Source of the DNA: Synergistaceae bacterium
GTDB taxonomy: Bacteria; Synergistota; Synergistia; Synergistales; Aminobacteriaceae
Assembly (NCBI GenBank): GCA_017439345.1
Contig: JAFSJJ010000010.1
Coordinates: 10,442-74,441, forward strand
DNA: 64,000 nt
Reading direction: 5' to 3'
The position numbers and the translations under genes were made by a program. This document shows, piece after piece, positions 13,450-39,095 of the stretch (position 1 is its first letter; the number at the start of each line of letters is the position of its first letter). The notes below the pieces were generated by a model. It saw nothing but the letters and a program-made list of their open reading frames with translations, was not told the DNA's origin and made no database searches.

Positions 13450-13453
13450 AGTT

Positions 13454-14437: not shown

Positions 14438-14479
14438 AACGTTAACTCCTTTGTTAGTAGAATCTTTTCGCTGAGATAA

Positions 14480-14647: not shown

Positions 14648-14659
14648 TTCATATTGTAT

Positions 14660-23039: not shown

Positions 23040-23339
23040 TTACTGAACGTTGAGAATTTCATCAAATCCTGTTGTCTCAAAAATCTTCATGACTTCCGGT
23101 ACAGCGTTCTTGATTACCATAGTTCCCTGCTGTGAATTCATGTACTTCTGAGCCTTCAGTAAAACTCTTAGTCCTGCCGATGAGACATAAGCTAGCTTTG
23201 ACATATCAACAACAAAATTCTTTACGCCCTTGAGATTAGTGCTTAAATCCTTTTCGAGCTGGTCTGCCGTTACTGCACTCAGCTTCTTATCGAGCGTCAA
23301 TGTAAGGTCTTGGCCGTTATCTGACTTGTCGAATATCAT
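23040..23339 (-). CDS. STAS-domain protein (SpoIIAA/RsbV-like anti-sigma-factor antagonist fold), 99 aa
   Basis: Contains DMSKLAYVSSAGLRVLLKAQK, with the conserved Ser-containing loop, and a C-terminal FETTGFDEILNV. Confidence 0.85.
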   Translation of the reverse strand: MIFDKSDNGQDLTLTLDKKLSAVTADQLEKDLSTNLKGVKNFVVDMSKLAYVSSAGLRVLLKAQKYMNSQQGTMVIKNAVPEVMKIFETTGFDEILNVQ

Positions 23340-23363: not shown

Positions 23364-23657
23364 TTACTCAATGTTGAGCAGTTCATCGAAGCCCGTAACT
23401 TCGAATATTTCCCGTATCTCCTGACTTATATTCTTGACCGTCATGCTGCCCTGCTTGTTCATGATTTTCTGAGCCTTAAGTAAAACTCTCAATCCTGCTG
23501 ATGAGATATAAACAAGTTTGCTCATGTCCATAACTAGAGCTTTTACGCCCGCAAGTCCGCCGAGTTCAGCCTCAAGTTCAGGAGCTGTCGTGGTGTCAAG
23601 TCTGCCGTCAAGTGAAATTGTTAATTCGTCTCCGTTAGTTGTTTTGTTGATTAACAT
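23364..23657 (-). CDS. STAS-domain protein, 97 aa (tandem paralog)
   Basis: Contains DMSKLVYISSAGLRVLLKAQK and FEVTGFDELLNI. It is a clear paralog of 23040..23339. Confidence 0.85.
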   Translation of the reverse strand: MLINKTTNGDELTISLDGRLDTTTAPELEAELGGLAGVKALVMDMSKLVYISSAGLRVLLKAQKIMNKQGSMTVKNISQEIREIFEVTGFDELLNIE

Positions 23658-23661
23658 GTTT

Positions 23662-25524
23662 TTATTTGCCTCCAGATTTTAATAATTTTATTTTGTTAGC
23701 TGCGTCTGCTTTTAGACCCTTGAGATCTATTTTGCCGCTCCCAAGTACCGGAAGTTTATTATACACAATAAAGTATGAAGGTATCTTAAACTTCGATAAA
23801 TGTTTTGCTAATTCAGAACGTATGAATTTCTCATCGAATTTAGCTCCGTCCTTAAGCGTTATACATGCACAGACCTCTTCACCGAAAAATTCACTGGGAA
23901 CTCCGACAACTTTCACTTCTGAGATAATATCACTAAGTAAAGTTATTGCATTCTCAACTTCAATCGGAGTGATGTTCTCGCCGCCCCTGATGATTAACTC
24001 TTTCAATCTGCCTGATAATCTCAAGTAGCCGTCAGCGTCAATCATGCCTAAGTCTCCTGTGTGAAGCCAGCCTTCTGCGTCAATTGACTGGTCATCAATC
24101 GGAACTTTGTAATAGCCGAGCATTAAATTGCTGCCCTGAACGAGAATTTCTCCCTGCTGATTTATATCACAGTCTTGATTTGTCTCGATATTGCGTATCT
24201 TGATTTCGAGTATCCCGAACGGAAGCCCTACAGTGTGCAGAATATGATCTTGACTGTCATCTGCCTTAGTGAGTGAAACCGGAGCCATCTCGCTTAGTCC
24301 GTATGCTGACATGAAATGATTTGCGGGCATATTCTTCTGGAACATCTCAATCTGAGCCGGTGTTGCTGCTGCTGCTGATATTATCGTTCGTCTTAAGCTG
24401 GCGGCTTTATCAGGAGTGAAATTCTTGTTATTCACAAGAGCTATTAACATCGCCGGAACTGAGTGAAATATCGTGCATTGATGCTTCGAGATAAGCTCTA
24501 ATATCGTATCAGTTCTTATATTCTCAGGGAAATAAACGCTTGAATTCACGATCAAACTTGATAATAAATTCGCTACAAGTCCGAATATGTGAAATAACGG
24601 AGCAATTATGCAGCTTCTATCGCTTTCAGTTATGTTCATGCGCTTTGTGTTCTCAACTGAAGCGTTCATCAAGTTAAAATACGAGAGCAATACACCTTTG
24701 GGACGGCCTGATGAACCTGACGTAAATATTACAACTGCAGGATCGTCAGCTTCAAAGTCGTGCTGGTATTTATCTTTGATTGCGTCATATTCGCCGATAC
24801 GGGACTTGTAATTAATATCTTTCGCAAATGAGTACGTCTTAACGCCTTCAAGAGCAATATTTTTCTCGACTGCCTCGCCTATGCATAGATAATCAGTGTC
24901 AGAGATTTTCATAAACATAGACAATTCGCTTGCATTGAGATTAAAGTTTAACAACACTGCGATTGCCCCTAATTTCTGAAGTGCAAAGAACGTTAATACC
25001 CAGTTTGCAGAGTTTGCCCCGAGTATGCCTACATGAGAGCCTTTGTGAATTCCCAGCTTGCTTAAGTCATCGGCTATAACGTGAGAACATTGTTCTATTT
25101 CCTGCCAAGTATAAGAGTCAATTGCATCAAATAAAATTTTCCTGTATCCTGACTCATAAACGCTCTTAGCAAGAAATTTCTTGAAGTTAAAGTGTATCAG
25201 CTCGTCTAGCTTGCTCTCTGAATCATGCTTGATTAATTCAACGTTCAAAATCTGGTCAAAGCCGGTAGTCTCGAATATATCAAAGACTTCTTGAGTAACG
25301 TTTATAATCTTGAATTTATCCTTGAATCTCTTGGCACAGATTAATAATTCTCTAAGTCCGCTCGATGAGATATAAGGCACGTCCTTTAAGTCAAATATCA
25401 AAGCGTCTGCATCATCAGGGATTTTTGCAGCATTAAGCCTCAATTCAGGAGAACTAGCCGTATCTATTCTGCCGGAAAGTTTGGCCAGAAAGTTTTTGTT
25501 ATCCTGCTGAACCTGAAACTGCAT
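23662..25524 (-). CDS. N-terminal STAS domain fused to an ANL-superfamily acyl-AMP/CoA ligase
   Basis: Residues 1-~100 form a STAS domain (DLKDVPYISSSGLRELL, FETTGFDQILNV). These are followed by the AMP-binding motifs IFTSGSSGRPKGV, YGLSE, HTGDLG, IIRGGENI and GSGKIDLKGLK. Confidence 0.85.
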   Translation of the reverse strand: MQFQVQQDNKNFLAKLSGRIDTASSPELRLNAAKIPDDADALIFDLKDVPYISSSGLRELLICAKRFKDKFKIINVTQEVFDIFETTGFDQILNVELIKHDSESKLDELIHFNFKKFLAKSVYESGYRKILFDAIDSYTWQEIEQCSHVIADDLSKLGIHKGSHVGILGANSANWVLTFFALQKLGAIAVLLNFNLNASELSMFMKISDTDYLCIGEAVEKNIALEGVKTYSFAKDINYKSRIGEYDAIKDKYQHDFEADDPAVVIFTSGSSGRPKGVLLSYFNLMNASVENTKRMNITESDRSCIIAPLFHIFGLVANLLSSLIVNSSVYFPENIRTDTILELISKHQCTIFHSVPAMLIALVNNKNFTPDKAASLRRTIISAAAATPAQIEMFQKNMPANHFMSAYGLSEMAPVSLTKADDSQDHILHTVGLPFGILEIKIRNIETNQDCDINQQGEILVQGSNLMLGYYKVPIDDQSIDAEGWLHTGDLGMIDADGYLRLSGRLKELIIRGGENITPIEVENAITLLSDIISEVKVVGVPSEFFGEEVCACITLKDGAKFDEKFIRSELAKHLSKFKIPSYFIVYNKLPVLGSGKIDLKGLKADAANKIKLLKSGGK

Positions 25525-26396
25525 TATTGATTTAACTCCTTGTTGACGACATCGAGAATAACTGCGCGTAATTCAGGGTCTTCCAGTGCTAACTGGACAT
25601 TTGCCGAGAGCCAGCCTTTTTGAGTTCCGCAGTCAAATCTGCGTCCTTTGAAGACTACTCCCCATACTGGTTCTTGAGAGCATAATGTCTTGAGAGAGTC
25701 TGTGAGCTGAATTTCTCCGCCGGTGCCTGCCTGCTGGTTGTGCAATAACTCAAATATCTTAGGCGATAATACATAGCGTCCCATGATTGCTAAGTTGCTG
25801 GGTGCTTCCTCAAGCAAGGGCTTCTCTACCATGTCAACGATCTTGTGAATTCCTGGTTCAACTTCGAACTGAGATTTCACTATTCCATAGCGCGAGACGT
25901 TCTGAGGCTCGACCTCTTCAAGGGCTATGACACTGCCGCCCATCTTCTCATGAACGCGGATTAACTGGGCAATAACAGGGTCTTCAGGGTTAATAAATAC
26001 GTCATCGGGCAAAGCTACTGCAAAGAACTCATTCTTGCACATAGGCTCGGCACATAATACAGCGTGGCCAAGTCCTAGAGGCTGTCTCTGCCTGACAAAT
26101 AATATCTCGGCCATGTTCGCTATCTTGAGCATCTTCTCATAAAGTGCTACTTTGCCTCGTGATTTCAGCATTTCCTCGAGTTCAAACGACCGGTCAAAAT
26201 AGTCCTCAATTGAACGCTTGGCACGTCCTGTTATCATTATAATCTCGTTACAGCCTGAAGCTACTGCTTCTTCGACACCATACGAAATTATCGGACGATT
26301 GACAAGGGGAAGCATTTCCTTCGCAAGTTCCTTCGTTACAGGCAAAAAACGAGTCCCTAAACCAGCAACAGGAAATACACATTTCGTAATCTTCAT
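25524..26396 (-). CDS. galU: UTP--glucose-1-phosphate uridylyltransferase
   Basis: Has KCVFPVAGLGTRFLPVTKELAKEMLP at the N-terminus and VEKP. The stop overlaps the downstream ATG by 1 nt. Confidence 0.9.
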   Translation of the reverse strand: MKITKCVFPVAGLGTRFLPVTKELAKEMLPLVNRPIISYGVEEAVASGCNEIIMITGRAKRSIEDYFDRSFELEEMLKSRGKVALYEKMLKIANMAEILFVRQRQPLGLGHAVLCAEPMCKNEFFAVALPDDVFINPEDPVIAQLIRVHEKMGGSVIALEEVEPQNVSRYGIVKSQFEVEPGIHKIVDMVEKPLLEEAPSNLAIMGRYVLSPKIFELLHNQQAGTGGEIQLTDSLKTLCSQEPVWGVVFKGRRFDCGTQKGWLSANVQLALEDPELRAVILDVVNKELNQ

Positions 26397-26414
26397 GATA
26401 AATAAATTACCTCC

Positions 26415-28166
26415 TTAAAAATTTTGAGCAAACTGACTGTTATACAAATCCGCATAAAGTCCGTTCTTCGCTAATAATTCATCGTGAGTCCCGGCTTCAC
26501 AGACATCGCCGTTGTTCATGACTAGAATTAAATCAGCGTTCTTTATCGTCGATAACCTGTGAGCTATTACAAATGACGTTCGACCCTTCATTAAGTTATC
26601 AAGGGCTGACTGTATTATTTTCTCTGTCCTAGTATCTACGTTCGATGTAGCTTCGTCAAGTATCAATACAGGCGAGTTCTTTATCATTGCTCGTGCTATA
26701 GTGATTAACTGCTTCTGACCTGATGAAAGACTTGATATGTCATTTATAATCGTGTCTACGCCTTCGGGTAATGCCTTCACCGAGTAATCAAGACCTGATG
26801 CTTTTAATACGTCATTCAAGTTCTGATCTGAAATATTCTTGCTGGAATAAATAATATTATCTTTAACAGAACCTTCAAACGTCCATATATCCTGAGGCAC
26901 TAAGCCTATAAAGTCATGAAGCCTTTCACGCGATATTGTGCTGATGTCTACTCCGTCAAAGTATATTTTGCCGTCATTCAGGTCATAAAAACGCATTAAT
27001 AAATTCATCATCGTTGACTTGCCTGCGCCGGTCGGCCCTACGATTGCTACTTTCTGGCCGGATTTAATATCTGCGCTGAAATCATGAATTATAATCTGTC
27101 CGGGAACATAGCCGAATTTAACATGTGAGAATTTTACGTCTCCCATGATTTTATTATTATTATTCTCTTTCTCTGGTGAAGTTATTTCGCTGATTTCAGG
27201 CTCCTCGAGAAGCTCAAATATTCTCTCTGCTGAGGCCATCGCAGGCTGCAAGAACGATATGAACTGCGAGATATTTATCAACATCTGAGAAAATATATTC
27301 GAGTACGTCATAAATGCTACCATGACACCTAGTGTTACGCCTTCGGATTTCGAGAGAATTAAATTAGACGTTACAAATACTATCAAGAACTGCGCTATTA
27401 ACCCTCCTGCTGTCATTATGGGCTGCATTATTCCTGATACGAACTGCGATAACCTGGAGCTTTCATATAATTCATCATTGCCGGCTTCGAATAAGGCTTT
27501 AATTCTGTCCTCGTTGTTAAATGCCTTTATTACTGAATGACCGTTGAAGGCTTCTTCTGCAAGAGAATTCACTTTGCCTAACAACATCTGCTGCTTGATA
27601 AAATACGGCTGGGATCTGCCCATCAGGAATTTATTTATATTCAGGAATATAATACTCGTAATCACAGTAACAAGAGCTAATATCACATTCATATAGAGCA
27701 TTATGCACGATGCGCAGATTAATACTACTATTGACGTAACTATTGCGCTTAAATTATTCGTCAAGGCATTAACCATTATGTCTATATCAGTAGTTATCCG
27801 GCTCATAATATCTCCGGTCTGGCGGGTATCAAAATATGACAGGGGTATTCTATCAAGTTTGGCATTTATCTCAGTTCGTAAATCACGGCCCATTAACTGT
27901 GAGACATGAACAAGCATTATATTCTGAATGAACGTTAATAAACTTCCTCCGGCAAGAAATATCACAGCAAGTCCGGAATAATATAACACTTGATTAATAT
28001 TCATAGGCTTAGAAATTCCTGACGCTATCTCATCAGTGATTAGCTTGACTAACTGTGGCAGTACTATCGAAGCTATCGTCCCGATTAATGCAAGTATTAA
28101 CGAGATAAAAATTTTTGCGCTGTATATCTTGAGACGTGAATATATTTTTGCAATTAGTCTTAGCAT
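26415..28166 (-). CDS. ABC exporter subunit (TMD-NBD), consensus ATPase site
   Basis: Six-helix TMD. Walker A is GPTGAGKST, the signature is LSSGQKQL, Walker B is LILDEATSNVD and the H-loop is IAHRLST. Confidence 0.9.
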   Translation of the reverse strand: MLRLIAKIYSRLKIYSAKIFISLILALIGTIASIVLPQLVKLITDEIASGISKPMNINQVLYYSGLAVIFLAGGSLLTFIQNIMLVHVSQLMGRDLRTEINAKLDRIPLSYFDTRQTGDIMSRITTDIDIMVNALTNNLSAIVTSIVVLICASCIMLYMNVILALVTVITSIIFLNINKFLMGRSQPYFIKQQMLLGKVNSLAEEAFNGHSVIKAFNNEDRIKALFEAGNDELYESSRLSQFVSGIMQPIMTAGGLIAQFLIVFVTSNLILSKSEGVTLGVMVAFMTYSNIFSQMLINISQFISFLQPAMASAERIFELLEEPEISEITSPEKENNNNKIMGDVKFSHVKFGYVPGQIIIHDFSADIKSGQKVAIVGPTGAGKSTMMNLLMRFYDLNDGKIYFDGVDISTISRERLHDFIGLVPQDIWTFEGSVKDNIIYSSKNISDQNLNDVLKASGLDYSVKALPEGVDTIINDISSLSSGQKQLITIARAMIKNSPVLILDEATSNVDTRTEKIIQSALDNLMKGRTSFVIAHRLSTIKNADLILVMNNGDVCEAGTHDELLAKNGLYADLYNSQFAQNF

Positions 28167-28168
28167 GA

Positions 28169-29899
28169 TTAATCCTGTCCTGTCTGCGATTTCGCTATTT
28201 CCTGATAGAGTGGGCAGCTTTGCATTAACTCCGAATGAGTACCTTCACCGACTATGCGCCCTTTGTCTATCACTATGATTTTATCAGCGTTAATTATAGT
28301 GCTGATTCTCTGGGCTGCTATCAAGATCGTTGCGTCCTGAAATTCTTCTCGTAAGGCTTGGCGTAACTTCTTGTCAGTAACTAAATCAAGTGCCGAAAAC
28401 GAGTCATCGAATAAATATATCTCAGCAGATTTACTTACTGCGCGCGCGATTGTCAATCTCTGCCTCTGGCCTCCTGAAAAATTACCGCCCCCGTGTTCGA
28501 CTTGAGAATTATAGCTGTCAGGTCTGGCCTCGATAAAGTCTTTAGCCTGTGCAATTTCCGAAGCTCTCTCAAGATTATTATTATTCCCTGAGAAATTTAT
28601 ATTATCTGCTATAGTACCTGTGAACAAAATATTTTTCTGGGGGACATAGCCTATTCTTGAGCGTAAATCAGCAAGATTGAAGTCTTTAACGTCAACGCCG
28701 TCTACTAGAATTCTGCCCTCTGAAGCGTCATATAATCTGGGAATTAAATTCAAGAGCGAACTCTTTCCGCACCCTGTAGGCCCGATAAATGCTACTGTCT
28801 GACCTCGTGAAACACTAAATGATATATCATCAAGAGAATTTGCTCCTGCTCCGGGATACTTGAAGCTGACGTGATTGAATTCTATAGTTCCGGACTTCGC
28901 AATTTCGCCTGAATAATTACCGTCCTGAATGCTCACGGGAGAATTAATTACTTCATTCACGCGGCCTGAACATACTAATAATCTTGGGAGCTGAATAAGC
29001 ATTAACGTTATAATCATGAAAGCATTGATGACTATTCCGCTGTAGAAAAATGCTACCAGCATATCAGAAAACAGAGCAAGTTTCGCTGATGAGTCAGCAA
29101 GAGACATTATCATATATGCTCCGGTTACATAAATAATTATTCCCGGTATGCTCTGAAAGAACGTTAAAACAGGATACATCGCTGACATTCGGGAATTGAC
29201 ATATATATTAGTGTCAGTCAACGGCGCGTTTACGTCATTAAATCTCTTGGCCTGATAATCATAAGCGTTGTAGGCGTGAATTACTCTTATACCTGATATA
29301 TGCTCGAACGAAACTTGATTTAGCTTGTCAGTTAATTTATTTACTATTTTCATTCGGGGCGTTAATGACGTTATCAAGAATATCACGAATATTATTATAA
29401 TCAGGACTATCGAAGCTATTACACCAGTCCAGATATAATTTTGCTTTGATAAATTTATCACGGCTAGAATTCCGGTCAACGGAGCACGAATTATGATCAT
29501 AGGCAGCATTGATATAAACATTTGAATTTGCGTTATATCAAGTGTACAGCGCGTTAATAAGCTCGGCACTGTGAACTCGTTGACTTCCTTCAATGAGAAA
29601 TCTATAACTTTGTCAAATGTCCGTGTCCGTAATCTTTTAGCTATGATGCTTGCTAGTTTTGCCGTGAAATATACGCTTCCTACACCGCATAACAAATTAG
29701 CCCCCGCACAGGCTAACATCGCTAAACATAAAGGCACTATTGCACTGAACGGGGTATTATTATTCTGTAATAAAAGCGTTATATTCTTGATATATTCCGG
29801 GAATAACAAATCAAGTCTGGCCTGACATGCTATTAATACAAGAGCAATAACAAGCCAGATATATTCACGGGCTTTGATTTGACGAAATATATTTTTCAC
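28169..29899 (-). CDS. ABC exporter subunit (TMD-NBD), degenerate ATPase site
   Basis: Walker A is GPTGCGKSS and the signature is FSGGQRQR. Walker B is YLFDDSFSALD (catalytic Glu replaced by Asp) and the H-loop is IAAQRIST (His replaced by Gln). Confidence 0.9.
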   Translation of the reverse strand: MKNIFRQIKAREYIWLVIALVLIACQARLDLLFPEYIKNITLLLQNNNTPFSAIVPLCLAMLACAGANLLCGVGSVYFTAKLASIIAKRLRTRTFDKVIDFSLKEVNEFTVPSLLTRCTLDITQIQMFISMLPMIIIRAPLTGILAVINLSKQNYIWTGVIASIVLIIIIFVIFLITSLTPRMKIVNKLTDKLNQVSFEHISGIRVIHAYNAYDYQAKRFNDVNAPLTDTNIYVNSRMSAMYPVLTFFQSIPGIIIYVTGAYMIMSLADSSAKLALFSDMLVAFFYSGIVINAFMIITLMLIQLPRLLVCSGRVNEVINSPVSIQDGNYSGEIAKSGTIEFNHVSFKYPGAGANSLDDISFSVSRGQTVAFIGPTGCGKSSLLNLIPRLYDASEGRILVDGVDVKDFNLADLRSRIGYVPQKNILFTGTIADNINFSGNNNNLERASEIAQAKDFIEARPDSYNSQVEHGGGNFSGGQRQRLTIARAVSKSAEIYLFDDSFSALDLVTDKKLRQALREEFQDATILIAAQRISTIINADKIIVIDKGRIVGEGTHSELMQSCPLYQEIAKSQTGQD

Positions 29900-29905
29900 G
29901 TTATA

Positions 29906-31045
29906 TTAACCTGCAAAGCCTTCCCATAAGTCTTTGAAATCATGTGTCTGCAAGTACTTAGGGTAATTCTTTCTCACTGTTTCCCATACTTTAGGGTCGC
30001 TTGTAATAGAAAGGCCGTCAACTATAGCCGGATAATTTCTGTGAAGTTCATAGAACAAGAATTCAACGTATTCTGCCTTGTCGCCGAACTCCTGAACAAA
30101 GAAATCATGAATAACATTATCGGCTCTCATACCGTCTTCGCCCATGTTCTGATAATCTATCCTGATAAAGCCGTCTTCTAAGCTCTTCATCATGTGAGCT
30201 AATACCAGCCAGAATTTTTCGGGATTGTCTCTGAAGTAGGCTATTTTCATAACTGAAGACTTCATGAGATTTAATCCGTTCAACTGTGATGATACTGCCT
30301 TTAATGTTCCCTTAGGGCTTCTTGTGCTGCGTGATAAAGACGTAAAACTCGGCCTGTATATATACCAACCTCCGGGGTTGACAACGTAATTCTTTGCATT
30401 GAACAGACACTCAAGCGAGAATATTAAATCTTCGGCTAACTTCATTTCACCGAACTTGATATTATGCGCGAGTAAAAATTCCCTCTTGTAAAGCTGGTTC
30501 CATACTGCCCAGTGATATTTATGCTTTAGCCAGCCGTCAAGACGTTCGTCCATATCATCATTAATTAACGTAACTTCCTGAGCAGGCTGAAAATCAAGAT
30601 GAACTACAAACGATAATACACTATCTTTATCCGTCATATCAACAGGGATATATTCGCCTTTAGCAGGTATAATCGGGTTTAAGCCTGTGTTATGAACTAC
30701 ATCTGCGTTAAATTTACTTGCAGCACTGAACATTTTCTCGAACATTTCGGGCTGAACTTGATCATCGCTGTCAACAAAACCTATATATTTGCCTCGTGCT
30801 TCCTGAATTCCCCGATTACGGGCTTCACCTGCTCCCATGTTTCTGGGCTGATTAATTAACTGTACACGTTCATTATTTCCGTAAAGTTCTTCGCATATCT
30901 TCATGCTGTTATCCGGTGTGCAGTCGTTCACAAGGACAACTTCAAGATTTGAGAGCGTCTGATTCAATATGCTGTCAACGCACACTTTGATATACTTTTC
31001 CACGCCGTAGACAGGCACTATAACTGATACATCGAAATTATTCAT
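29906..31045 (-). CDS. GT2-family glycosyltransferase
   Basis: Contains VSVIVPVYGVEKYIKVCVDSILNQT and FVDSDD. Start moved to the second ATG, 10 nt after AGGAG. Confidence 0.85.
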   Translation of the reverse strand: MNNFDVSVIVPVYGVEKYIKVCVDSILNQTLSNLEVVLVNDCTPDNSMKICEELYGNNERVQLINQPRNMGAGEARNRGIQEARGKYIGFVDSDDQVQPEMFEKMFSAASKFNADVVHNTGLNPIIPAKGEYIPVDMTDKDSVLSFVVHLDFQPAQEVTLINDDMDERLDGWLKHKYHWAVWNQLYKREFLLAHNIKFGEMKLAEDLIFSLECLFNAKNYVVNPGGWYIYRPSFTSLSRSTRSPKGTLKAVSSQLNGLNLMKSSVMKIAYFRDNPEKFWLVLAHMMKSLEDGFIRIDYQNMGEDGMRADNVIHDFFVQEFGDKAEYVEFLFYELHRNYPAIVDGLSITSDPKVWETVRKNYPKYLQTHDFKDLWEGFAG

Positions 31046-31076
31046 GTAAATCATCTCCTGGATTAAATCGATTAAA

Positions 31077-31901
31077 TCAAATCAAATCAAAATTTTTCAG
31101 GGCGTTATATATTCCATCGTGATCTATGTCATCTGTTATATAATCCCCGTATTCTTTGGCTGCGTTTGAACCGTTGCCCATAACTATGCCGGTTCCTGAA
31201 GAGTTCAGCATTTCCAAATCATTAACGCTGTCTCCGAATGCATAAGTATCGCTCACTGACAAGCCGAGTTTCTCACAAAGCCTGCGAATTCCTGAACCCT
31301 TGCTCATGCCCTCAGGGACTATTTCGAAGACATCAAGGCGTTCACGATTTATAAATATGGGCTGCTGAATCAGGACATCATAATATTCTGACATGAGATT
31401 TAGAAATTTCACCCTGTCCCACTTGTCAGCTTCACTGCCTGCTACACATGTTGCCTTGCTGATTATTAATTCGCTGTCAACGTCAATATCGTTAATTGAA
31501 AGCAGATTATCGCCTACAGATTTTCTCAACGTGTCAACTTGTCCTGGAGGGTTAAAGCCTTCGGGGTCGAAATAAAGATTATAACGACCCTCGTAGACTG
31601 CACCGAACTTGTATTTACGAATGGCATTCAGTGTCTGAACAGCAAGCTCATGGGAAAGCTCATAATAAAATAACGTATTATTATCGTGTTCTATCAAAGT
31701 TCCGCAGCCGGATATTATTCCGCTGAAGCCTAGATTTATAACTTGAGACGGGATATTAACTTTCGTTCGTCCTGTGCAGATAAATGCAAGATTGCCTTTT
31801 TCCTGAAGCATTTTGATTGAATCACGTGTACTTTCAGGGATAAAGCCTTTGCTGGTCATTAAAGTCCCGTCTATATCAAAGAAAGCCGCTTTCCTGTTCA
31901 T
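31077..31901 (-). CDS. HAD-IIB (Cof-type) sugar-phosphate phosphatase
   Basis: Contains AAFFDIDGTLM, CTGR and the C-terminal GDSVNDLEM. Confidence 0.85.
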   Translation of the reverse strand: MNRKAAFFDIDGTLMTSKGFIPESTRDSIKMLQEKGNLAFICTGRTKVNIPSQVINLGFSGIISGCGTLIEHDNNTLFYYELSHELAVQTLNAIRKYKFGAVYEGRYNLYFDPEGFNPPGQVDTLRKSVGDNLLSINDIDVDSELIISKATCVAGSEADKWDRVKFLNLMSEYYDVLIQQPIFINRERLDVFEIVPEGMSKGSGIRRLCEKLGLSVSDTYAFGDSVNDLEMLNSSGTGIVMGNGSNAAKEYGDYITDDIDHDGIYNALKNFDLI

Positions 31902-31904
31902 GAT

Positions 31905-33221
31905 TTATTCATGAATTAAACGTTCGACTAACATTTTCTCACAGCTGATAATTCCGACATCGTTAATATAATTATCTATTCCGGCCTCACTAAATCTGCG
32001 TGAAATGCTCTGTACGAGTTTGTCGCTGTCAAATCTCTGCGTTAATCTGAACGTTATATCTTCCTCGTTAGCTCCAACGAAAATATAAAATCCGTCCGTC
32101 GTTGCATGAGGTTCCATTTGAACGCGTTCGACAAGCTGATAATATTCCGGCCTCAAAGTTACGCGTCCTGGATAAGTTATAACGTAAGTATCAGGATTTG
32201 AGCCTTCGTTTGAGTGTGCATTAGAATTCTCGCGTTCAATCTCTTCAATTGACTTAGTGCCGTTCTCAAAGCCTTTAACCGTATTAACTTTTCGTGCTAC
32301 GACAGAGCCGTAATTCTCTTTGTGCAGCTGTGCTTTCATGAAACCTGATAATTCAGTGCATATTTCCGGAAGACTCTTAACGCGTAATTCAGGAGTTATA
32401 GGCAGAATAAAGCTCTCTGAACAGTTCTCGTCAGTCCAGATATTATATAAGTGCCTCAAGTCAACAGGAATTTTCGCAATAATAGTCTGGTCTTCGGGTT
32501 TATACGTGTCATAGACGGCTAAAGTAGTGCATGTTACTAACAAGGGAACAAATGAGACGCCTAACTCTTTAGTCTTTGCTATGAACTGCTTTAGATTTAA
32601 CATGATTTCATAGCTGTGCATCTGGTCGCGTTCTTCAGGGTAAATATCTTCGACTTCAGGGGTCATGTGAAATAAATTCTCAGCCTTAAACTTCCATGAC
32701 GGCGCAATACTTTCATCGGCTAATACTGCATAAGGATTTACGAGGCCTTCTGCTTCGGGGCTGGCATGTAATCTAACGTCTTCATCGGGCTGAACGTCAA
32801 AGCCTTCAAGTTTCGCGTAGTGATATAAAAGCGTCTTCCAAATCGGCCATGATCCTTTGAAGTCCGTCATTCCGTGAAAGAATAATACTGAGAAAGACTT
32901 TTCACCGGTAATAAGAAAATAAAATAAATACCCGTTAGTGTCATCTGTGCCGTAATAGTGCCTTACATCAGGGTCATCAAAGAACGCTATTTCTTTATCA
33001 GAATTATCGATCTTCCAGACCTTATTATCTTTTATTACGGGTCTGAATGCAAAGTTAGGGTATGCCTCAAAAGTTTTCTTGGCTGCAAGTTTCAGATGTT
33101 CGAGATTAACAGGCCTGGTAAGCGTGAAGCTCATTCGGTTGCTGAATGTCGTTGAATGTCCTGCTCCCCTGTAGAACATCATTTTGTTAGAGTAACCTAG
33201 TTCCCTAAGTTCCATATTCAT
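31905..33221 (-). CDS. Condensation/CAT-superfamily-like acyltransferase (HxxxD = HGMTD)
   Basis: Start moved to ATG 33221, 12 nt after AGGAGTG. Contains FFHGMTDFKGSWP. It is a paralog of 37800..39095 along its full length. Confidence 0.65.
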   Translation of the reverse strand: MNMELRELGYSNKMMFYRGAGHSTTFSNRMSFTLTRPVNLEHLKLAAKKTFEAYPNFAFRPVIKDNKVWKIDNSDKEIAFFDDPDVRHYYGTDDTNGYLFYFLITGEKSFSVLFFHGMTDFKGSWPIWKTLLYHYAKLEGFDVQPDEDVRLHASPEAEGLVNPYAVLADESIAPSWKFKAENLFHMTPEVEDIYPEERDQMHSYEIMLNLKQFIAKTKELGVSFVPLLVTCTTLAVYDTYKPEDQTIIAKIPVDLRHLYNIWTDENCSESFILPITPELRVKSLPEICTELSGFMKAQLHKENYGSVVARKVNTVKGFENGTKSIEEIERENSNAHSNEGSNPDTYVITYPGRVTLRPEYYQLVERVQMEPHATTDGFYIFVGANEEDITFRLTQRFDSDKLVQSISRRFSEAGIDNYINDVGIISCEKMLVERLIHE

Positions 33222-33262
33222 GATAAATAAAATCACTCCTTAATAAATTTAAGAAAAAATAC

Positions 33263-35827
33263 TTATCTAGCGCACACACTCTGAATTATACGCGACTTGA
33301 AAAATTTTATTGCTTTTGGACTGTCCGTAACGTGAACGGGGTCTATTGCATCAGGTAAAACATTACGCTTATACTGGAGAATATCACGATATAATATATG
33401 CGTCTTTGGCTCGTTGAACATGATTTTGACTTCACGGGACAGCATTCTTGATACAAGATTTTCTGCACGTGAAATTTTTTCCTTATCGAGTTTTACGCCT
33501 TCATAATACGGAAGCTCCAGAATTAGGCAGTAAGTCTCATCGTCCTTGAAAAATACGAAATCACGGACTTCAATATTTATCTCGCGCTCGCACAATATTG
33601 CAGATTCGTACATATCATCTTCGCTTATTCCCCCGTAAATAGCATAACGCCTTCCTGGAGCTGAGAATATTAAATTCTTATCCGTGAGTTCTTCTGCCTT
33701 GATTATAAGTTCTGTCCTGTATCTATAAAGCCCTGCCAATGTCGATACTATCAGCCTGTAAGACCTGCCCGGTTCTAACTGGTGAGCGTAATACATTCTG
33801 CCGTCATCAAGAGCTTCGAATTCATAAAATGCTGATGTCAAACACAACTTGAACATGTCATGAGAATACACGCTGCCTGCAAAGACTTCTTCTGAGGCAA
33901 TTCCGGCATTCTCTACTGGAATATTCTTTACATATAATTTCAGGTGATGAGCATGTATCTTGAACGCTCCTGAAGTGTTGCATATGAATTTCTCAAGCTC
34001 TGGCCATATCTGACTTATTGCATCGTCTGCATAGAAATCTACTGTCCTGAGTTCTTCGGCCCGTGCCTTATCCGGTGAAATTCTCTTGTTCAGAGCTTCC
34101 CTTAAGCTGTCGGGGAGACCTTCTCTATCACTGATACAGCCTGCTTCTATGTCATTGCAAAGTTCCTGCCAGTGTTCGAACATAAACTCAAGATTATCAA
34201 TCAGTATCCATGCATTAGGCGCGAAAATAACGTCAAGGCCTCGTTCCTTGAGTGCAAAGAATAACCGTGCGTAATCGGCATTCAATATCTCATTCGGGAA
34301 CATCAGCTCAACAGGATTTATCAAATTCAGCCTGTTATTCAGTTCAGTCAAATTGTTCGAGTATAATTCTGACAATATCAAGCCCAGCAAAGTATTTGTA
34401 TACGTGTTGTCCAAGTCAAGACCGGATGAGTGATACGGCAGACTTTCAAGCATCAGGAAAATTTTACGCCCTGCAATCAGCTTCCGAAACTCATCAACGT
34501 AATATTTCAAGTGCCTCTGTGTAAACGGAAGCCTTCTCGCTTTACCCATTATGCCGTGAGTCAGGGCATACGATGTTATGTCGCTGTCTGTGAATATTCC
34601 TGTCTCTGCTATTCTTGCTGTAAGTCTTATCATAGGCTCGTAAGTGTCATAATCAGTCAAGGGCAGCCGCGAAGAATAACCTTCCATTGTCATTATATTC
34701 TCGAACTGATAGCGTTTTCCGTAATCAGAGTGTTCACCGTTCTCAAGAATATTCTTCAATATTTGAGCCTGACAATCTTTCACAGTTATGGGCATTGGCT
34801 GTCTTCGATACGAGATAAAGCTCCGGCTTGAGTCTAATTCTCCCTCATTGATTATAACCTGAGGAAGTGTCAAAAGCTCTTTGCGCCTCTGGTCAGAATA
34901 TAATTTTGTCGCAGGCAGAGGAGTCAGCATTCTCACATATGGTTCAAGAATTTCACGTATTTCATTGCGCGTCTCTTTAGTAATAACAGTGCTTGAGAGT
35001 ATCAGCATTGCCTCATGGGTCAACAAATTATGCATGACATCATTCATATTGAACCCGAAACTCAGACCGGTATCAAATATTTTCTTGAAGCCTAGTGCAT
35101 ACGATATTAACTTCTCATTCGAAAGATCCGTTGCCTGTACAAGCGAGGCACTGTTCACAAAATACACATAGCCAATTAACTGAGGCAGCAAACATACATT
35201 ATCAGCATAACCATACGCCTTGACGTTGAAAGCAAAATCCTCTGCAAAGAATATATCTTCGTCAAAACGCAGATTATGTTCATCGAGAAATTTACGCCTG
35301 TACAGCTTTGAAGTTACCATGCCCCATATTACGTTAAAAATTTTCTTGTCGTCCCAGTTATGCCTGTTCACTACAATGCGTTCTTGAGTCTGATCCCACA
35401 AAACTTTTTCGTTCAAGATTAAGTGCGACTCAGCCTCTAACTCAATCTCACGCCGGAACGCGCATATATCAGAGTTCGTGTTGATTATATTATTCAACGC
35501 AGATTTTATACACTCAGGGGTATATTTATCATCGCCGTCAAGAAATCCTACATAATCGCCCGATGCATGTTCAAGCGCGTAATTTCTGGGACTTGAAGGG
35601 GTGTGATAATCATTATCAAGAATGCATATTTTCACGTTGTCATAACCTGCAAGCATTGTCCGTATACTGTCTTGATAGTCTTTAGGCGAATTGTGAACCG
35701 CCACTACCCACTCAATATCAGCAAAGCCGAACGTCTGAGCCTTCATTGACTCAAACGCCCGTGCGAAGATATTTAAATCTACGTTGTGAAGAGGTGTTAT
35801 TACAGAAATTTTATAATAATCTCTCAT
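33263..35827 (-). CDS. Fusion protein: N-terminal GT2 glycosyltransferase plus C-terminal GH3-like (acyl-acid amido synthetase type) adenylating domain
   Basis: GT2 part: ISVITPLHNV...FLDGDD. From about residue 345 it shows the GH3 pattern AQILKNILENGEHSDYGKRYQFENI...RLPLTDYDTYEPMIRL...SYALTHGIMGKARRLPFT. Confidence 0.7.
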   Translation of the reverse strand: MRDYYKISVITPLHNVDLNIFARAFESMKAQTFGFADIEWVVAVHNSPKDYQDSIRTMLAGYDNVKICILDNDYHTPSSPRNYALEHASGDYVGFLDGDDKYTPECIKSALNNIINTNSDICAFRREIELEAESHLILNEKVLWDQTQERIVVNRHNWDDKKIFNVIWGMVTSKLYRRKFLDEHNLRFDEDIFFAEDFAFNVKAYGYADNVCLLPQLIGYVYFVNSASLVQATDLSNEKLISYALGFKKIFDTGLSFGFNMNDVMHNLLTHEAMLILSSTVITKETRNEIREILEPYVRMLTPLPATKLYSDQRRKELLTLPQVIINEGELDSSRSFISYRRQPMPITVKDCQAQILKNILENGEHSDYGKRYQFENIMTMEGYSSRLPLTDYDTYEPMIRLTARIAETGIFTDSDITSYALTHGIMGKARRLPFTQRHLKYYVDEFRKLIAGRKIFLMLESLPYHSSGLDLDNTYTNTLLGLILSELYSNNLTELNNRLNLINPVELMFPNEILNADYARLFFALKERGLDVIFAPNAWILIDNLEFMFEHWQELCNDIEAGCISDREGLPDSLREALNKRISPDKARAEELRTVDFYADDAISQIWPELEKFICNTSGAFKIHAHHLKLYVKNIPVENAGIASEEVFAGSVYSHDMFKLCLTSAFYEFEALDDGRMYYAHQLEPGRSYRLIVSTLAGLYRYRTELIIKAEELTDKNLIFSAPGRRYAIYGGISEDDMYESAILCEREINIEVRDFVFFKDDETYCLILELPYYEGVKLDKEKISRAENLVSRMLSREVKIMFNEPKTHILYRDILQYKRNVLPDAIDPVHVTDSPKAIKFFKSRIIQSVCAR

Positions 35828-37796
35828 GAGTTGCTAAGAAATTCTTTATATCAAAATCCGTGCTGAACAGGAAATCAAGGTTGTAATTATTATGCCCGTC
35901 CTTGTCTTTGGTTATTGACATGTCATCTGATGCAAACGCAATAATCTTTGCGCTCTCAGAAGTCTTGCGCTGTTTCTCGAAATCATAAGGCTGGCCGGAA
36001 TCTTTGAACGTAAGCCTGAGGTAATCACTAAAGCATACTAGATCTAAGTGAATATCGCCTACGTCATCAAATGCGTTCATAATGCGCTCGATAAGCATTT
36101 CTTCTGAAGCAAGACGGATTCTGCGCGCCTTTCTGACATCAAAGCCGAACTGCATTGCATAGCCTTCTATCATCGAAATTAACGGGTCTATAGCATATGA
36201 AGTGTTCTTGACTACAACACTGCTGACTTCAACGCCCTTCTTGAGTTCGCCTTCAAGTTCAAGGGTTCTCAGCTTCATTAACATATCGACATGCAGTTTT
36301 CTCTGGTCAATTTTGCCTGTAGCATTCAGCGGGAACTTGTCATATATAAAGAAATACGCAGGGACTTTGAACGAGCCTACAGTTTCCTTAAGATGCTTGC
36401 GTAATGCGTCCTCATCAAATTTTGCGCCTTCCTTGAGAGTTATGCACGCACCCAAGTTCTCACCGTAAAGCCTGTCTTTGAAGCCGAATATACGACATTC
36501 CTTAATGCCTTCTAAGCTGATTGCCTGAGCCTCGATTTCGCCGGGGGTGATATTCTCTCCGCCCTTGATAATAATATCTTTAATGCGTCCTGCGATTCTT
36601 ACGTTGCCGTCTTCGTCCATAACGCCTAAATCTCCGGTATGGAACCAGCCGTTTTCGTCAATAGCCTGTTTCTCCGGAGGCAGCTTGTAATATCCGTTCT
36701 TAACATGGAAGCCTCGAGTTACAAGTTCGCCGACTTCTCCAGCAGGAAGCAGCTGATTATTTTCACCGCAAATGCCTATCTCGACTTCAGGTATTCTGCG
36801 TCCTATTGTGTTATGCCTCACTGAAATATTATCTTCAGGCCGTGCCATAATGAAAACTGTAGCTGTCTCAGTCATTCCGAACATATTCAAGAACGTTGCG
36901 TTATTCAATGCCGTCTCAAACCTCACGAACTGAACAGGTGACGTATAACTTCCTGCTATTCCGCACATCCTGACATACGGCGCGCATTTGGCTGTAGCGT
37001 CTTTGCTGTCTATTATAGACTGATATACTGCTGCTACTGACCATAAGTCGCTTACATGCTCTCTATTTACTATATCGGCTATAGCGTCAGCTTTCACTTT
37101 CTCAGGAATATATACAGTTCCGCCAAGACATAAATATATGCACGGGATACTCAATCCAAACGCATGGAACAGGGGAAGTGCTACACATGCCTTAGTGCCT
37201 CGAATTGACTTGAACTCATCGGCAAATATCAGCGAACAGTTAATCATCGAGTACTGTGAAGTCAATACAGCCTTAGGAAATGAAGTAGTCCCTGAAGTGT
37301 AAATAATATATGCATCGTCCTTAATGTCCCATTTTGAGTCATCAACAGCAATTTTCTCACATGAAGCAAAATCCGTCTCAAGATACGAGAACACTTTATC
37401 TTGAGGAAGCTCAAAGGATTTAGCTAGCATTTCAGCCTCTGAAGCAACACCTTTAGTATCATGAGTAGCTCCGTAAAGGACATATTTAGAATCTGCAAAT
37501 GTTACTAACGGGGTTACATCATTGATAGAATAATTCGAGTTAAGGCACACTGCAACACCGCCGGCGTGAACAATGCCGTAATAAGTGCAGAGCCATTCAG
37601 GTGAAGGACTTCCCCATATTACAACATGGTCATTTTTCTTGACACCGTGCTTGACTAGATACGATGATACAGCGTCAATATTCTCAATCAGCTGCTTGTA
37701 AGTAACCCGCTTATCTCCCATTACAACAGCGTCTTTGTCAGGGTGCAGGGCTGCCTGCTCGGTGAATATCTGATAATACGTCTTGTTTGTGAACAT
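35811..37796 (-). CDS. ANL-superfamily acyl-AMP/CoA ligase with a C-terminal RsbW/SpoIIAB-like domain
   Basis: AMP-binding motifs are IIYTSGTTSFPKAV, FGMTET, HTGDLG, IIKGGENI and ATGKIDQRKL. An extra ~140 aa follows (residues ~520-661), containing RRIRLASEEMLIERIMNAF...GDIHLDLVCFSDYLRLTFKDSGQPYDF. Confidence 0.8.
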   Translation of the reverse strand: MFTNKTYYQIFTEQAALHPDKDAVVMGDKRVTYKQLIENIDAVSSYLVKHGVKKNDHVVIWGSPSPEWLCTYYGIVHAGGVAVCLNSNYSINDVTPLVTFADSKYVLYGATHDTKGVASEAEMLAKSFELPQDKVFSYLETDFASCEKIAVDDSKWDIKDDAYIIYTSGTTSFPKAVLTSQYSMINCSLIFADEFKSIRGTKACVALPLFHAFGLSIPCIYLCLGGTVYIPEKVKADAIADIVNREHVSDLWSVAAVYQSIIDSKDATAKCAPYVRMCGIAGSYTSPVQFVRFETALNNATFLNMFGMTETATVFIMARPEDNISVRHNTIGRRIPEVEIGICGENNQLLPAGEVGELVTRGFHVKNGYYKLPPEKQAIDENGWFHTGDLGVMDEDGNVRIAGRIKDIIIKGGENITPGEIEAQAISLEGIKECRIFGFKDRLYGENLGACITLKEGAKFDEDALRKHLKETVGSFKVPAYFFIYDKFPLNATGKIDQRKLHVDMLMKLRTLELEGELKKGVEVSSVVVKNTSYAIDPLISMIEGYAMQFGFDVRKARRIRLASEEMLIERIMNAFDDVGDIHLDLVCFSDYLRLTFKDSGQPYDFEKQRKTSESAKIIAFASDDMSITKDKDGHNNYNLDFLFSTDFDIKNFLATHERLL

Positions 37797-37799: not shown

Positions 37800-39095
37800 T
37801 TATTCAACCTTTCTTAATTTTTCTAAGTCTACTATATTATGACTTATACGGCCTCTATCCGTGAATTCAGTCTTGAAGCCTGCTTTGATCAGCTCAGAGT
37901 TCATCGCACGCGCTAATTTATCATCATCAAATCTCTGAATTGACGTAACGTTCAGAATATCTCTAAACGTAGTTATAATGAAATACGACAAAGCAAACGG
38001 AGCATCAACGAAAATATTCTCGAACAGGTCATTAACTGCGCCGGGCATATCCATAATGCCAAGATAACTTGTACCGTAAGTTACTCCGCCGGGAACTGAT
38101 GACGTAAGCTCTTTACTCTTTGATATAATATCCTCTTTCTCGAACTCCCGAACCGCACAAGCCTTGTTGTATAACGATTTAGCGTAATTCTCAGGCTTCC
38201 TTTGAAGATTAATGACGTTCTTAATATAAGCGCAGAAATCTTCATCATTCATTGCAAGCTCTTGACTTGACACAGGGATAAACACAGCGTCTGAGAAATT
38301 CACTATGCTTGAACACTTGAACACAGCACGAAGATCAACGGGCAGGGCAGTTAATATATTCCGTGAGCCGATATCATAATTATTATTTACAGCTTTTACC
38401 ATAAGACTTATCATCAACGGCATAAAACTTGTATGCATTGACTTTGAAGCCTTCAGAAATTCACTCAGGCTCAGGGTAATTCTATAGTGATGAGAGTACG
38501 TTTCAGCAGGATTATAGAACTCAACTGGAAGCGGGTAATAATTCGCGAAGTCCGGCACAAACGACGGCTCTATGTCCTTATCAGCAAAAGTATTATACGG
38601 GTCAAGATTTTCAGGAGTATCCCAGTTTTCAGGCTCTTTAGTCCTTATTTCGGCCTTAGCAAGTTCTTCAGGTGAGAGTTCAATCTTTGCGTAATAATAC
38701 AATGCTGTCTTGAGAAAACTGCTCAGACCCCGCCAGTCAGATATTCCGTGATACATCGAGATAATAACATGCTTATCATCTTCAGAGTCCTGAATAATTG
38801 CCATCAAGTACCCGTTAGTCTCATCTGAACCGAGATTAATTATACGGTCATGTCTGATTACTTTCACAGGTGCATTATTGCTCTCAAAGAAAATTTTGCC
38901 TTCTTTAATTACAGGTCTGTAAGCGAACTCCGGGAAAAGCGATAAAGCCTTCTCGAGACCTGCTCTCAGCGCGTCAACATCAACTTTGGACTTGAAATAA
39001 AGATTAACTCGAACGTCCATAGTTGCACCACTACCCGAAGCTGTATAGTAAAAATATTTGTCAGAAGCTCCGGGAACACGTAAATTACTATTCAT
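37800..39095 (-). CDS. Condensation/CAT-superfamily-like acyltransferase (HxxxD = HGISD)
   Basis: Contains SMYHGISDWRGLSSF. It is a paralog of 31905..33221 (shared ETNGYL, YYYAK and LPVDLR blocks). Confidence 0.65.
   Translation of the reverse strand: MNSNLRVPGASDKYFYYTASGSGATMDVRVNLYFKSKVDVDALRAGLEKALSLFPEFAYRPVIKEGKIFFESNNAPVKVIRHDRIINLGSDETNGYLMAIIQDSEDDKHVIISMYHGISDWRGLSSFLKTALYYYAKIELSPEELAKAEIRTKEPENWDTPENLDPYNTFADKDIEPSFVPDFANYYPLPVEFYNPAETYSHHYRITLSLSEFLKASKSMHTSFMPLMISLMVKAVNNNYDIGSRNILTALPVDLRAVFKCSSIVNFSDAVFIPVSSQELAMNDEDFCAYIKNVINLQRKPENYAKSLYNKACAVREFEKEDIISKSKELTSSVPGGVTYGTSYLGIMDMPGAVNDLFENIFVDAPFALSYFIITTFRDILNVTSIQRFDDDKLARAMNSELIKAGFKTEFTDRGRISHNIVDLEKLRKVE

Follow-up and report, generated by a model that had tools for sequence, protein, structure and literature searches.

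Partner switching is a textbook means of controlling sigma factors. Partner switches that act on other targets are also known, among them SiaB/SiaC, which acts on SiaD, as well as HsbR/HsbA and BtrW/BtrV. SypE/SypA of Vibrio fischeri is a further non-sigma partner switch (PMC8256260, PMC10120452, PMC4517449), and the structure of SiaB-SiaC has been solved (PDB 6KKO). Direct partner-switch control of a biosynthetic enzyme has been described only recently, for STAS-glycosyltransferase fusions, which are regulated by a kinase together with a SpoIIE phosphatase (PMC13555669); the Anabaena fusion All4160 is controlled via Alr3423 and HenR, and All2285 and XssP were also reported (Harada et al. 2026; PMC13555669; bioRxiv 10.64898/2026.04.08.717354).

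In this study, we analysed a 64,000-nucleotide stretch of DNA from a Synergistaceae bacterium (GenBank assembly GCA_017439345.1, contig JAFSJJ010000010.1, positions 10,442 to 74,441 of the forward strand), referred to below as the window. One of its genes, here called the ligase-tail gene, encodes an acyl-AMP/acyl-CoA ligase of the ANL family that continues beyond its last ligase motif into a C-terminal tail. Residues 521-661 of this protein form a domain of the GHKL fold that belongs, as a divergent member, to its RsbW/SpoIIAB branch, and the fusion of this domain to the ligase is conserved in about 150 rumen and gut bacterial loci. An earlier, sequence-only reading of the window had been aware of no precedent for such an arrangement, and our literature searches also found no paper describing an RsbW-like domain fused to a metabolic enzyme, a ligase included, whereas partner-switch control of STAS-glycosyltransferases is described.

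The ligase tail is a divergent RsbW/SpoIIAB-like domain

Window positions 35811-36239 on the (-) strand encode the last 142 residues of a 661-residue open reading frame (ORF; translation KGVEVSSVVVKNTSYAIDPLISMIEGYAMQFGFDVRKARRIRLASEEMLIERIMNAFDDVGDIHLDLVCFSDYLRLTFKDSGQPYDFEKQ...HERLL*). The continuation of about 140 residues that the sequence-only reading had quoted after the motif ATGKIDQRKL was found in this ORF exactly as given. When the full-length protein was compared with Pfam, AMP-binding was assigned to residues 11-370 (E 2.4e-66) and AMP-binding_C to residues 420-495 (E 8e-12), and no assignment was made past residue 495. The core motifs of ANL enzymes are intact (TSGTT at 167, GMTE at 307, HTGD at 386 and GRIKD at 403), and the A10 motif is present with its Lys (GKIDQR at 494, within ATGKIDQRK at residues 492-500). 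With both domains and the core motifs in place, the protein belongs to the ANL adenylate-forming enzymes. The best NCBIfam model for the ligase was long-chain-fatty-acid-CoA ligase, with a score under the equivalog cut-off.

The tail itself was compared with profile libraries both alone and together with its relatives. By itself, the window tail matched Pfam HATPase_c_2 (PF13581) with an E value of 1.2e-3 and 19.3 bits, which is below the gathering score of 27.4, and it matched NCBIfam RsbW with an E value of 1.8e-4. At the level of the family, HATPase_c_2 was matched by 24 of 27 diverse tails (best E 4e-8), and several relatives carry a precomputed PF13581 match; automated annotation records PF13581 on some fragments, one of which is named 'ATP-binding protein' by NCBI. 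A profile built from 3 tail sequences had RsbW (6m36) as its top match in the PDB (E 0.061). Moreover, when a profile of 76 tail sequences was aligned by hhalign with seven canonical RsbW-type kinases, the match reached a probability of 98.9 % (E 2.9e-17) over tail residues 26-106.

Structure prediction pointed to the same fold. AlphaFold models were made from a 3-sequence alignment (predicted local distance difference test, pLDDT, 67.6) and from 20 sequences (pLDDT 88.6, predicted TM score 0.82), and their topology was identical; the predicted order of elements in the tail domain is strand, helix, helix, two strands, two helices, two strands and helix. When the model with pLDDT 88.6 was searched against the PDB by Foldseek, the top 19 matches were all SpoIIAB, RsbW or UsfX (E 1.7e-6 to 2.4e-4). 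For both models the top 19-21 matches came exclusively from these three proteins, with a probability of 1.0 and target-normalised TM scores of 0.69-0.91, and the CA domains of histidine kinases ranked well behind. Sequence profiles, hhalign and two structure searches (E of about 2e-6 to SpoIIAB/RsbW) thus agree on the RsbW/SpoIIAB-type GHKL fold that had been recognised by eye in the sequence-only reading.

It could be argued that the resemblance is due to chance, and that the ligase merely ends in a C-terminal extension peculiar to ligases and unrelated to RsbW, or in an artefact of annotation or of a frameshift. The failure of the window copy, on its own, to reach the Pfam gathering score would fit that view. 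It was nevertheless rejected on the hhalign result, on the HATPase_c_2 matches of the relatives, on the top-ranking of RsbW/SpoIIAB with two independent models, and on a continuous reading frame whose fusion is conserved in 77 of 77 genome loci; we regard it as very improbable indeed. The tail is best called a divergent, probably pseudo-enzymatic member of the RsbW/SpoIIAB/UsfX fold family. The best explanation of its origin is that it arose from the small Ser kinases which partner the local STAS subfamily, and was then fused permanently to the ligase via a conserved helix. In that linker helix, L501, L509 and L518 each show at least 90 % conservation over 71 unique tails, all of which have G521, where the RsbW-like domain begins.

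The fusion is conserved across four phyla

A word-indexed search with the single tail sequence returned only 4 proteins, so that an exhaustive profile search and a genome scan were needed. The exhaustive HMMER search of 1.84 billion representatives yielded 70 proteins, most of which are ligase fusions of 655-683 aa. The matches outside the tail family that were examined are all RsbW-like, and comprise fusions to GNAT acetyltransferases, short stand-alone copies with the same N-box variant as the tail, and canonical HATPase_c_2 proteins. The genome scan, in which one genome per species was used, gave 77 loci (L001-L077), all from rumen or gut metagenome-assembled genomes (MAGs) or isolates, and a metagenome scan added 71 further loci. 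Each of the 77 genome loci has the ligase-tail fusion, and these loci come from four phyla (Synergistota, Coriobacteriia, Bacillota and Spirochaetales). Carriers include Synergistaceae/Fretibacterium (62-84 % identity), Coriobacteriia, many Clostridia and Lachnospiraceae, and also Oribacterium sp. KHPX15, Solobacterium and one Spirochaetales MAG.

N-terminal extensions of ~105 aa in L025, L026 and L064, suspected at one point to be STAS domains, were rejected as start-codon artefacts of ORF calling in high-GC DNA. In some high-GC loci, greedy longest-ORF calling also swapped true genes for antisense ORFs (fam2, fam9), and for this reason neighbour counts were made on all ORFs with hidden Markov models.

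The ATP site of the tail is remodelled throughout the family

Residue conservation was read from the 71 unique tails. In the N-box equivalent, E566 aligns with the catalytic Glu and E570-R571 stands where the Mg-binding Asn is expected; the Glu of the E-x-x-x-N pattern is thus kept, and its Asn is replaced by Glu570 followed by Arg571. None of the residues E565, E566, M567, L568, E570, R571, I572 and A575 varies among the 71 tails. So far as is known, nearly every active GHKL enzyme has the Mg-binding Asn. The G1 box reads F597-x-D599-x-G601 in every tail and lies on the canonical D-x-G in the alignment. The resemblance to canonical kinases does not extend further: all profile matches to the tail end at the G1 box, no glycine-rich G2 motif was found in the C-terminal half of any of the 71 tails, and the lid, from G1 to the next helix, is ~14 residues long in the tail as compared with ~28 in canonical kinases. 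The missing Asn and the missing glycine-rich lid had both been noticed in the window copy by the sequence-only reading, and prove to be features of the whole family.

In place of the G2 box, the tails share a family-specific motif, S-x-S-A-K-I-I, in which S615 is invariant (71/71), S613, A616 and I618-I619 are present in at least 90 % of unique tails, and Lys or Arg fills position 617 in 65 of 71. This motif is predicted to lie on the helix after the shortened lid, at the position of the canonical GGLGI (G2 box), a placement that follows the order of secondary-structure elements only. A global hhalign alignment forced on the C-terminal half of the tail against canonical kinases was discarded, its confidence being near zero.

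In distant members, tail identity (40-46 %) exceeds that of the ligase core (37-39 %), making the tail the more conserved part of the protein. Judged from these sequences, the changes at the ATP site are fixed, family-wide substitutions under strong selection rather than decay. Because the Asn has become Glu-Arg, the G2 box is missing and the lid is half as long, the tail is now likely not a canonical kinase, although it may still bind a ligand or nucleotide in some form.

STAS and SpoIIE genes are enriched around the ligase-tail gene

The three STAS domains that the sequence-only reading had listed are present in the window, all on the (-) strand: two stand-alone proteins and the N-terminus of a second ligase, STAS-ligase, which has no tail (Table 1). 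All STAS copies have the antagonist motif Y-[IV]-S-S-[AS]-G-L with the phospho-acceptor Ser retained, at a position which we take to be that of SpoIIAA Ser58 and RsbV Ser56. The core of STAS-ligase shares 32-36 % identity with those of ligase-tail proteins, and the first part of the linker helix is kept (LKADAANKIKLL); because of this identity and of the retained first helix turns, there are hints that STAS-ligase is a paralogue with exchanged domains. The sequence-only reading had suggested that two ligases, one with each kind of domain, are coupled or gated by partner switching. None of the 77 genome loci contains a STAS-ligase fusion, which was seen in the lineage of the window only, and the pairing is therefore not a general mechanism but at most a lineage-specific elaboration.

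Among 150 sampled neighbours of genome loci L001-L077 other than the C protein (an HxxxD protein described below), a Pfam census placed STAS (6), SpoIIE (4), GGDEF (4) and PAP2 (3) at the top. The GGDEF diguanylate cyclases and PAP2 phosphatases rank just behind STAS and SpoIIE as neighbours of ligase-tail genes. No sigma-factor family was found among the top 25 neighbour families or in the window ORFs scanned. STAS genes occur in 13 genome loci and SpoIIE genes in 14, and any STAS, SpoIIE or canonical RsbW-type kinase gene in 20 of 77. In the metagenomes, for which partner genes were counted in 70 of the 71 loci (147 loci in all with the genomes), a partner-switch gene is present in 12 of 70 and SpoIIE in 7 of 70, so that partner-switch genes are found in 32 of 147 loci overall. 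They are often immediate neighbours. STAS adjoins the fusion gene in L070 (23 nt), L073 (111 nt), L025/L026 (33 nt, divergent), L145, L149 and L150, and SpoIIE does so in L002 (40 nt), L022 (84 nt), L033 (111 nt) and L073. Only ~6 of the 32 positive loci also have a canonical kinase (L011, L053, L059, L116, L123, L150), and because most have none, the tail appears usually to fill the 'RsbW slot'.

Elsewhere, the same STAS subfamily sits in STAS/SpoIIE/HATPase_c_2 modules beside EamA, LPG-synthase-C or ABC genes, and the canonical kinases of these modules belong to the same family as the nearest canonical relatives of the tail. Two such modules (L082 8001-15969, L085 3379-8297) comprise STAS, one or two SpoIIE proteins (one with dCache-HAMP) and a HATPase_c_2 kinase of 130-150 aa, with no sigma factor in view. 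The L082 module, on a contig from the same sample as the window, was considered as a candidate for the module of the window organism and rejected: its GC content is 48.5 % as compared with 41.3 %, and the tetranucleotide correlation is 0.59, from which we conclude that the contig belongs to a different organism.

A docking site for STAS proteins is proposed

We propose, and give the proposal about an even chance of being correct, that the degenerate tail is the docking site of the ligase for unphosphorylated STAS protein, and that STAS binding switches or gates the ligase. The tail would then be a dock built into the enzyme, and the phosphorylation state of the STAS proteins would be set by SpoIIE-type phosphatases, together with canonical HATPase_c_2 kinases where these are present, in cis or in trans. 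ANL enzymes need a rotation of their C-terminal subdomain by ~140 degrees between adenylation and thioester formation; a STAS protein seated on the tail would restrict or free this rotation in the ligase. By an alternative route, STAS binding would alter the oligomerisation or dimerisation of the ligase. Acyl activation would thereby be switched for downstream acyltransferases and exporters, and the direct target of a partner-switching module may thus be a biosynthetic enzyme in place of a sigma factor. In support of this proposal we count the presence of the three STAS domains of the window in one co-directional cluster with the ligase-tail gene, the two STAS genes close to that gene in L001, the enrichment of STAS and SpoIIE genes at loci that mostly lack a canonical kinase, the kinship of the tail with the canonical kinases that accompany this STAS subfamily elsewhere, the retained phospho-acceptor Ser, and the precedent for direct control of an enzyme by such modules (PMC13555669).

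Several observations weigh against STAS docking. The near-universal neighbour of the ligase-tail gene is the C protein and not STAS. Where flanks are long enough to judge, partner-switch genes are found in a minority of loci (a STAS, SpoIIE or RsbW gene is carried by 7 of the 18 genome loci that have 6 kb or more on each side, and by 6 of the 14 metagenome loci that have 8 kb or more of flank), and ~60 % of well-covered loci have none nearby. Co-occurrence of the tail with STAS genes, the lack of which the sequence-only reading had named as a ground for refutation, is seen in part: STAS and SpoIIE are the top families after the C protein, but are not present at every locus. The 64-kb window contains neither a SpoIIE/PP2C phosphatase nor a canonical kinase; either the genes for any phosphorylation cycle would lie elsewhere, or the tail itself would act as the kinase. 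A SpoIIE gene beside the fusion, at a locus with no canonical kinase, would fit a tail with kinase activity just as well, and the invariant acidic and basic pocket residues may point to a bound ligand and not to an inactive site. Finally, at least 7948 clusters of the STAS subfamily (motif DYISSAGLRVLL) score at E <= 1e-8, as compared with ~70 representatives of the tail family. Because it so far outnumbers the tails, this subfamily must have other main partners; the tail is one specialised client of a general system and not the only partner of these STAS proteins.

Of the other explanations, one that we rate as somewhat unlikely leaves STAS out altogether, and takes the tail for a dimerisation or scaffold module, docking for instance the C acyltransferase, or for a sensor of a small molecule or adenine nucleotide that acts allosterically on the ligase. 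The constancy of the C protein (49 copies within 2 kb) and the lack of a nearby STAS gene at most loci speak for this view; RsbW and SpoIIAB are homodimeric (PDB 1L0O, 6M36), the pocket positions E566, E570, R571, D599 and K/R617 are conserved, and the ExxxR variant is also fused to GNAT enzymes. Yet the tail is kept in loci that have no C protein (L001, and L070 and L073, which have AT3), STAS and SpoIIE are the most enriched families other than C and are often immediately adjacent and co-directional, and among GHKL matches the fold search ranks the STAS-binding RsbW/SpoIIAB branch first.

It appears decidedly unlikely that the tail phosphorylates the neighbouring STAS proteins as a working Ser kinase, with Glu570 (together with Arg571 or Lys617) replacing the Asn-Mg arrangement and SpoIIE reversing the reaction; in that case the ligase would bring its own RsbW. 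In favour of this reading are the invariance of the N-box Glu566 and of the adenine-binding G1 Asp599-x-Gly601, the replacement residues, which are themselves invariant rather than decayed, and the position of SpoIIE and STAS beside the fusion with no canonical kinase in most such loci (for example L044, L073, L002, L022, L033). What tells against it is the ATP site, with Glu for the Mg-binding Asn in 71 of 71 tails, no G2 box, half the usual lid and profile matches that stop at G1, and the presence of a canonical kinase as well in the six loci named above. A broader view, which we consider unlikely but a little less so, holds that STAS and RsbW-like domains dock to each other reversibly under the control of phosphorylation and so build up a multi-enzyme machine for acylation and export, that SpoIIE picks the enzymes to be coupled, and that the remodelled pocket (Glu-Arg, Ser-x-Ser-Ala-Lys) is an Mg-independent reader of a ligand or of phospho-Ser. 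It draws on the range of carriers, with RsbW-like domains on ligases and MatE exporters, and STAS domains on the second ligase, on ~425-aa proteins and on free competitors. If it were true, partner switching would here be a programmable switch of metabolon assembly and no longer a switch of gene expression.

Other carriers of RsbW-like and STAS domains

MatE exporters with a C-terminal RsbW-like domain, in which the N-box Asn is kept, lie beside the ligase-tail gene in L002 (3869-5554) and L060 (7419-9170). In L011 and L053, SpoIIE is fused to a canonical HATPase_c_2 kinase. Proteins of ~425 aa near ligase-tail genes consist of an N-terminal domain of ~330 aa with no Pfam match and a C-terminal STAS domain of the same subfamily (Table 1). 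An N-terminal RsbW-like domain is fused to a GNAT acetyltransferase in P0048, P0052, P0059, P0068 (~480 aa) and P0064, mostly with the same N-box variant, in which Asn is lost and Arg follows (E-E-x-L-x-x-R); because of these fusions, the degenerate RsbW-like module is seen to be attached to more than one class of enzyme.

The gene cluster and the C family

The ligase-tail gene belongs to a co-directional run on the (-) strand, from 40590 to 23040, in the order carboxylesterase, HxxxD protein, ligase-tail, GT2-GH3, second HxxxD protein, Cof-type HAD, GT2, two ABC exporters, GalU, STAS-ligase, STAS and STAS. The last 17 nt of the ligase-tail gene overlap the start of the next gene, which encodes the GT2-GH3 fusion. 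This fusion is the third adenylating enzyme of the cluster, and is conserved in L003-L006. The coordinates are collected in Table 1.

Table 1. Features of the ligase-tail gene, its cluster and related proteins (window positions, unless a locus is named)
Feature	Position	Strand	Basis
Ligase-tail gene, 661-aa ANL acyl-AMP/acyl-CoA ligase with C-terminal RsbW-like domain	35811..37796	(-)	ORF list, Pfam; gene call identical on public contigs
Ligase core, residues 1-500	36297..37796	(-)	Pfam and motif reading
Helical linker, residues 501-520, LHVDMLMKLRTLELEGELKK; connects mobile C-terminal ligase subdomain to RsbW-like domain	36237..36296	(-)	AlphaFold helix, tail residues 2-20
RsbW/SpoIIAB-like GHKL domain, residues 521-661 (141 residues)	35814..36236	(-)	Pfam, NCBIfam, PDB profile match, hhalign, AlphaFold, Foldseek
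N-box equivalent EEMLIERIMNAF, residues 565-576	36069..36104	(-)	PDB profile alignment and hhalign
G1-box equivalent FKDSGQPY, residues 597-604	35985..36008	(-)	hhalign and conservation
Family-specific motif S-x-S-A-K-I-I, residues 613-619	35940..35960	(-)	Conservation, secondary structure
Stand-alone STAS, 97 aa, motif YISSAGLRVLL, phospho-acceptor Ser position kept	23364..23657	(-)	NCBIfam ant_ant_sig E 9.4e-18
Stand-alone STAS, 99 aa, motif YVSSAGLRVLL	23040..23339	(-)	NCBIfam ant_ant_sig E 9.7e-18
STAS-ligase (second ligase), no tail	23662..25524	(-)	Pfam STAS 3-96, AMP-binding 129-472, AMP-binding_C 522-598
Seven same-strand genes between ligase-tail and STAS-ligase genes (GT2-GH3, second C-family, Cof-type HAD, GT2, two ABC exporters, GalU-like nucleotidyltransferase)	25524..35827	(-)	
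GT2 glycosyltransferase-GH3 acyl-acid amido synthetase fusion, 854 aa	33263-35827	(-)	
Second C-family protein	31905-33236	(-)	
HxxxD(G) 'C' family protein, 431 aa, directly upstream of ligase-tail gene	37800..39095	(-)	No Pfam
Carboxylesterase, upstream of C-family and ligase-tail genes	39088-40590	(-)	
STAS proteins of ~425 aa	L011 5698-6999, L023 1606-2898, L025 6393-7676, L035 696-1967, L019 277-1935, L100, L112, L124, L141		

The C family (~430 aa; for example L010 11893-13197) is a near-universal neighbour of ligase-tail genes in the 77 genome loci. It had no match in Pfam or in a PDB sequence-profile search, and its invariant H-x-x-x-D motif is the feature by which it may be called condensation- or acyltransferase-like. 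The C protein is replaced by a membrane AT3 acyltransferase in L070 and L073 and by a glycosyltransferase in L001. Given that the C family is so constant a neighbour, and that AT3 or a glycosyltransferase takes its place elsewhere, the ligase appears to feed envelope acyltransferases; it would supply acyl groups to the HxxxD or AT3 acyltransferases of a cluster for the acylation and export of an envelope glycolipid or glycan.

A minimal form of the cluster was found at the same chromosomal site in L001 (84 % tail identity), where the gene order is GNAT, GT, ligase-tail, GalU, STAS, STAS, pss, psd and gyrA, and where ligase-tail, GalU and both STAS genes lie within 1.5 kb. The shared site (L001 3000-8662; window 23040-47953) is bounded by S41 peptidase, PurA and GNAT on one side and by pss, psd and gyrA on the other. 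From this arrangement we conclude that the link of the ligase-tail gene to two STAS genes outlasts the loss of most of the cluster, and that RND efflux, esterase, C proteins, GT2-GH3, HAD, GT2, ABC and STAS-ligase are lineage-specific gains or losses.

Further observations were made in the window. A region on the (-) strand (12225-16933) encodes a Double-GTPase 2 protein (13454-14437), a dynamin-like GTPase of 757 aa (14660-16933) and two proteins with no Pfam match. Long acidic C-terminal tails are present on the RND transporter (42882-46070, (-); ...DDYDYNYDDDDEGDDDDDDDE) and on GyrA (18957-21578, (+)). The outer-membrane factor ORF (41456-42949) has a run rich in Met, Ile and Thr at its start; it has 497 aa as an ORF and 494 aa in the public gene call, and its true start may differ slightly.

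Comparison with known systems

If the tail does bind STAS proteins, a definite output other than a sigma factor would be at hand for the very abundant STAS/SpoIIE modules of anaerobes, which lack known targets. The tail would then also represent a new mode of post-translational control for ANL ligases, beside acetylation of the A10 lysine, and a natural degenerate GHKL domain in which the passage from a kinase to a pure binding module can be studied.

With RsbW, SpoIIAB and UsfX (PF13581; PDB 6M36/6M37, 1TH8, 1L0O, 8IH8, 8JZT) the tail shares its fold and domain size, and homology is detectable through the N-box helix and the G1 strand pair, with the Glu and the Asp-x-Gly kept; STAS and SpoIIE genes also lie near tail loci, as in those systems. 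Unlike them, the tail is fused to an ANL ligase, has Glu-Arg for Asn, no G2 box and a short lid, and, as far as its sequence allows a judgement, is of doubtful kinase activity; no sigma gene is present in the window or among the common neighbours. The use of an RsbW-like domain as one module of a larger protein is shared with Rv1364c (RsbU-RsbW-STAS, PDB 3KE6), TciR (REC-RsbW-like, PMC12826045) and LvrC (PDB 9QIH), and with the SpoIIE-HATPase_c_2 fusions of L011 and L053. In Rv1364c, TciR and LvrC, however, the partners are signalling domains, whereas the partner in ligase-tail is a metabolic enzyme, and TciR was reported to retain the residues needed for kinase activity (PMC12826045).

Among the non-sigma switches, SypE/SypA, SiaB/SiaC-SiaD, HsbR/HsbA and BtrW/BtrV have in common that phosphorylation of the STAS protein decides its binding partner, and their outputs include enzymes of polysaccharide or biofilm formation. 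In these systems, such as SypE/SypA and SiaB/SiaC, the RsbW-like protein is separate and works as a kinase, and the enzyme under control carries no domain of this type, unlike ligase-tail. The STAS protein MlaB binds and regulates the ABC ATPase MlaF in envelope lipid traffic (PMC7367683). There, too, a STAS protein acts on a non-sigma, ATP-using enzyme, as proposed for ligase-tail, but no GHKL domain is involved.

The functionally closest known systems are the STAS-glycosyltransferase fusions All4160, All2285 and XssP. In All4160-type fusions, and by our proposal in ligase-tail, a component of a partner switch is fused to a biosynthetic enzyme for an envelope polymer and the output is not a sigma factor. 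The STAS-enzyme layout of All4160 is represented here only by the second ligase of the window. In All4160-type proteins the STAS domain is fused and the kinase is free and active, whereas in ligase-tail it is the kinase-type domain, apparently degenerate, that is fused to an adenylating enzyme. Ligase-tail is thus the mirror image of the STAS-glycosyltransferase fusions, with an anti-sigma-kinase-type domain on an adenylating enzyme.

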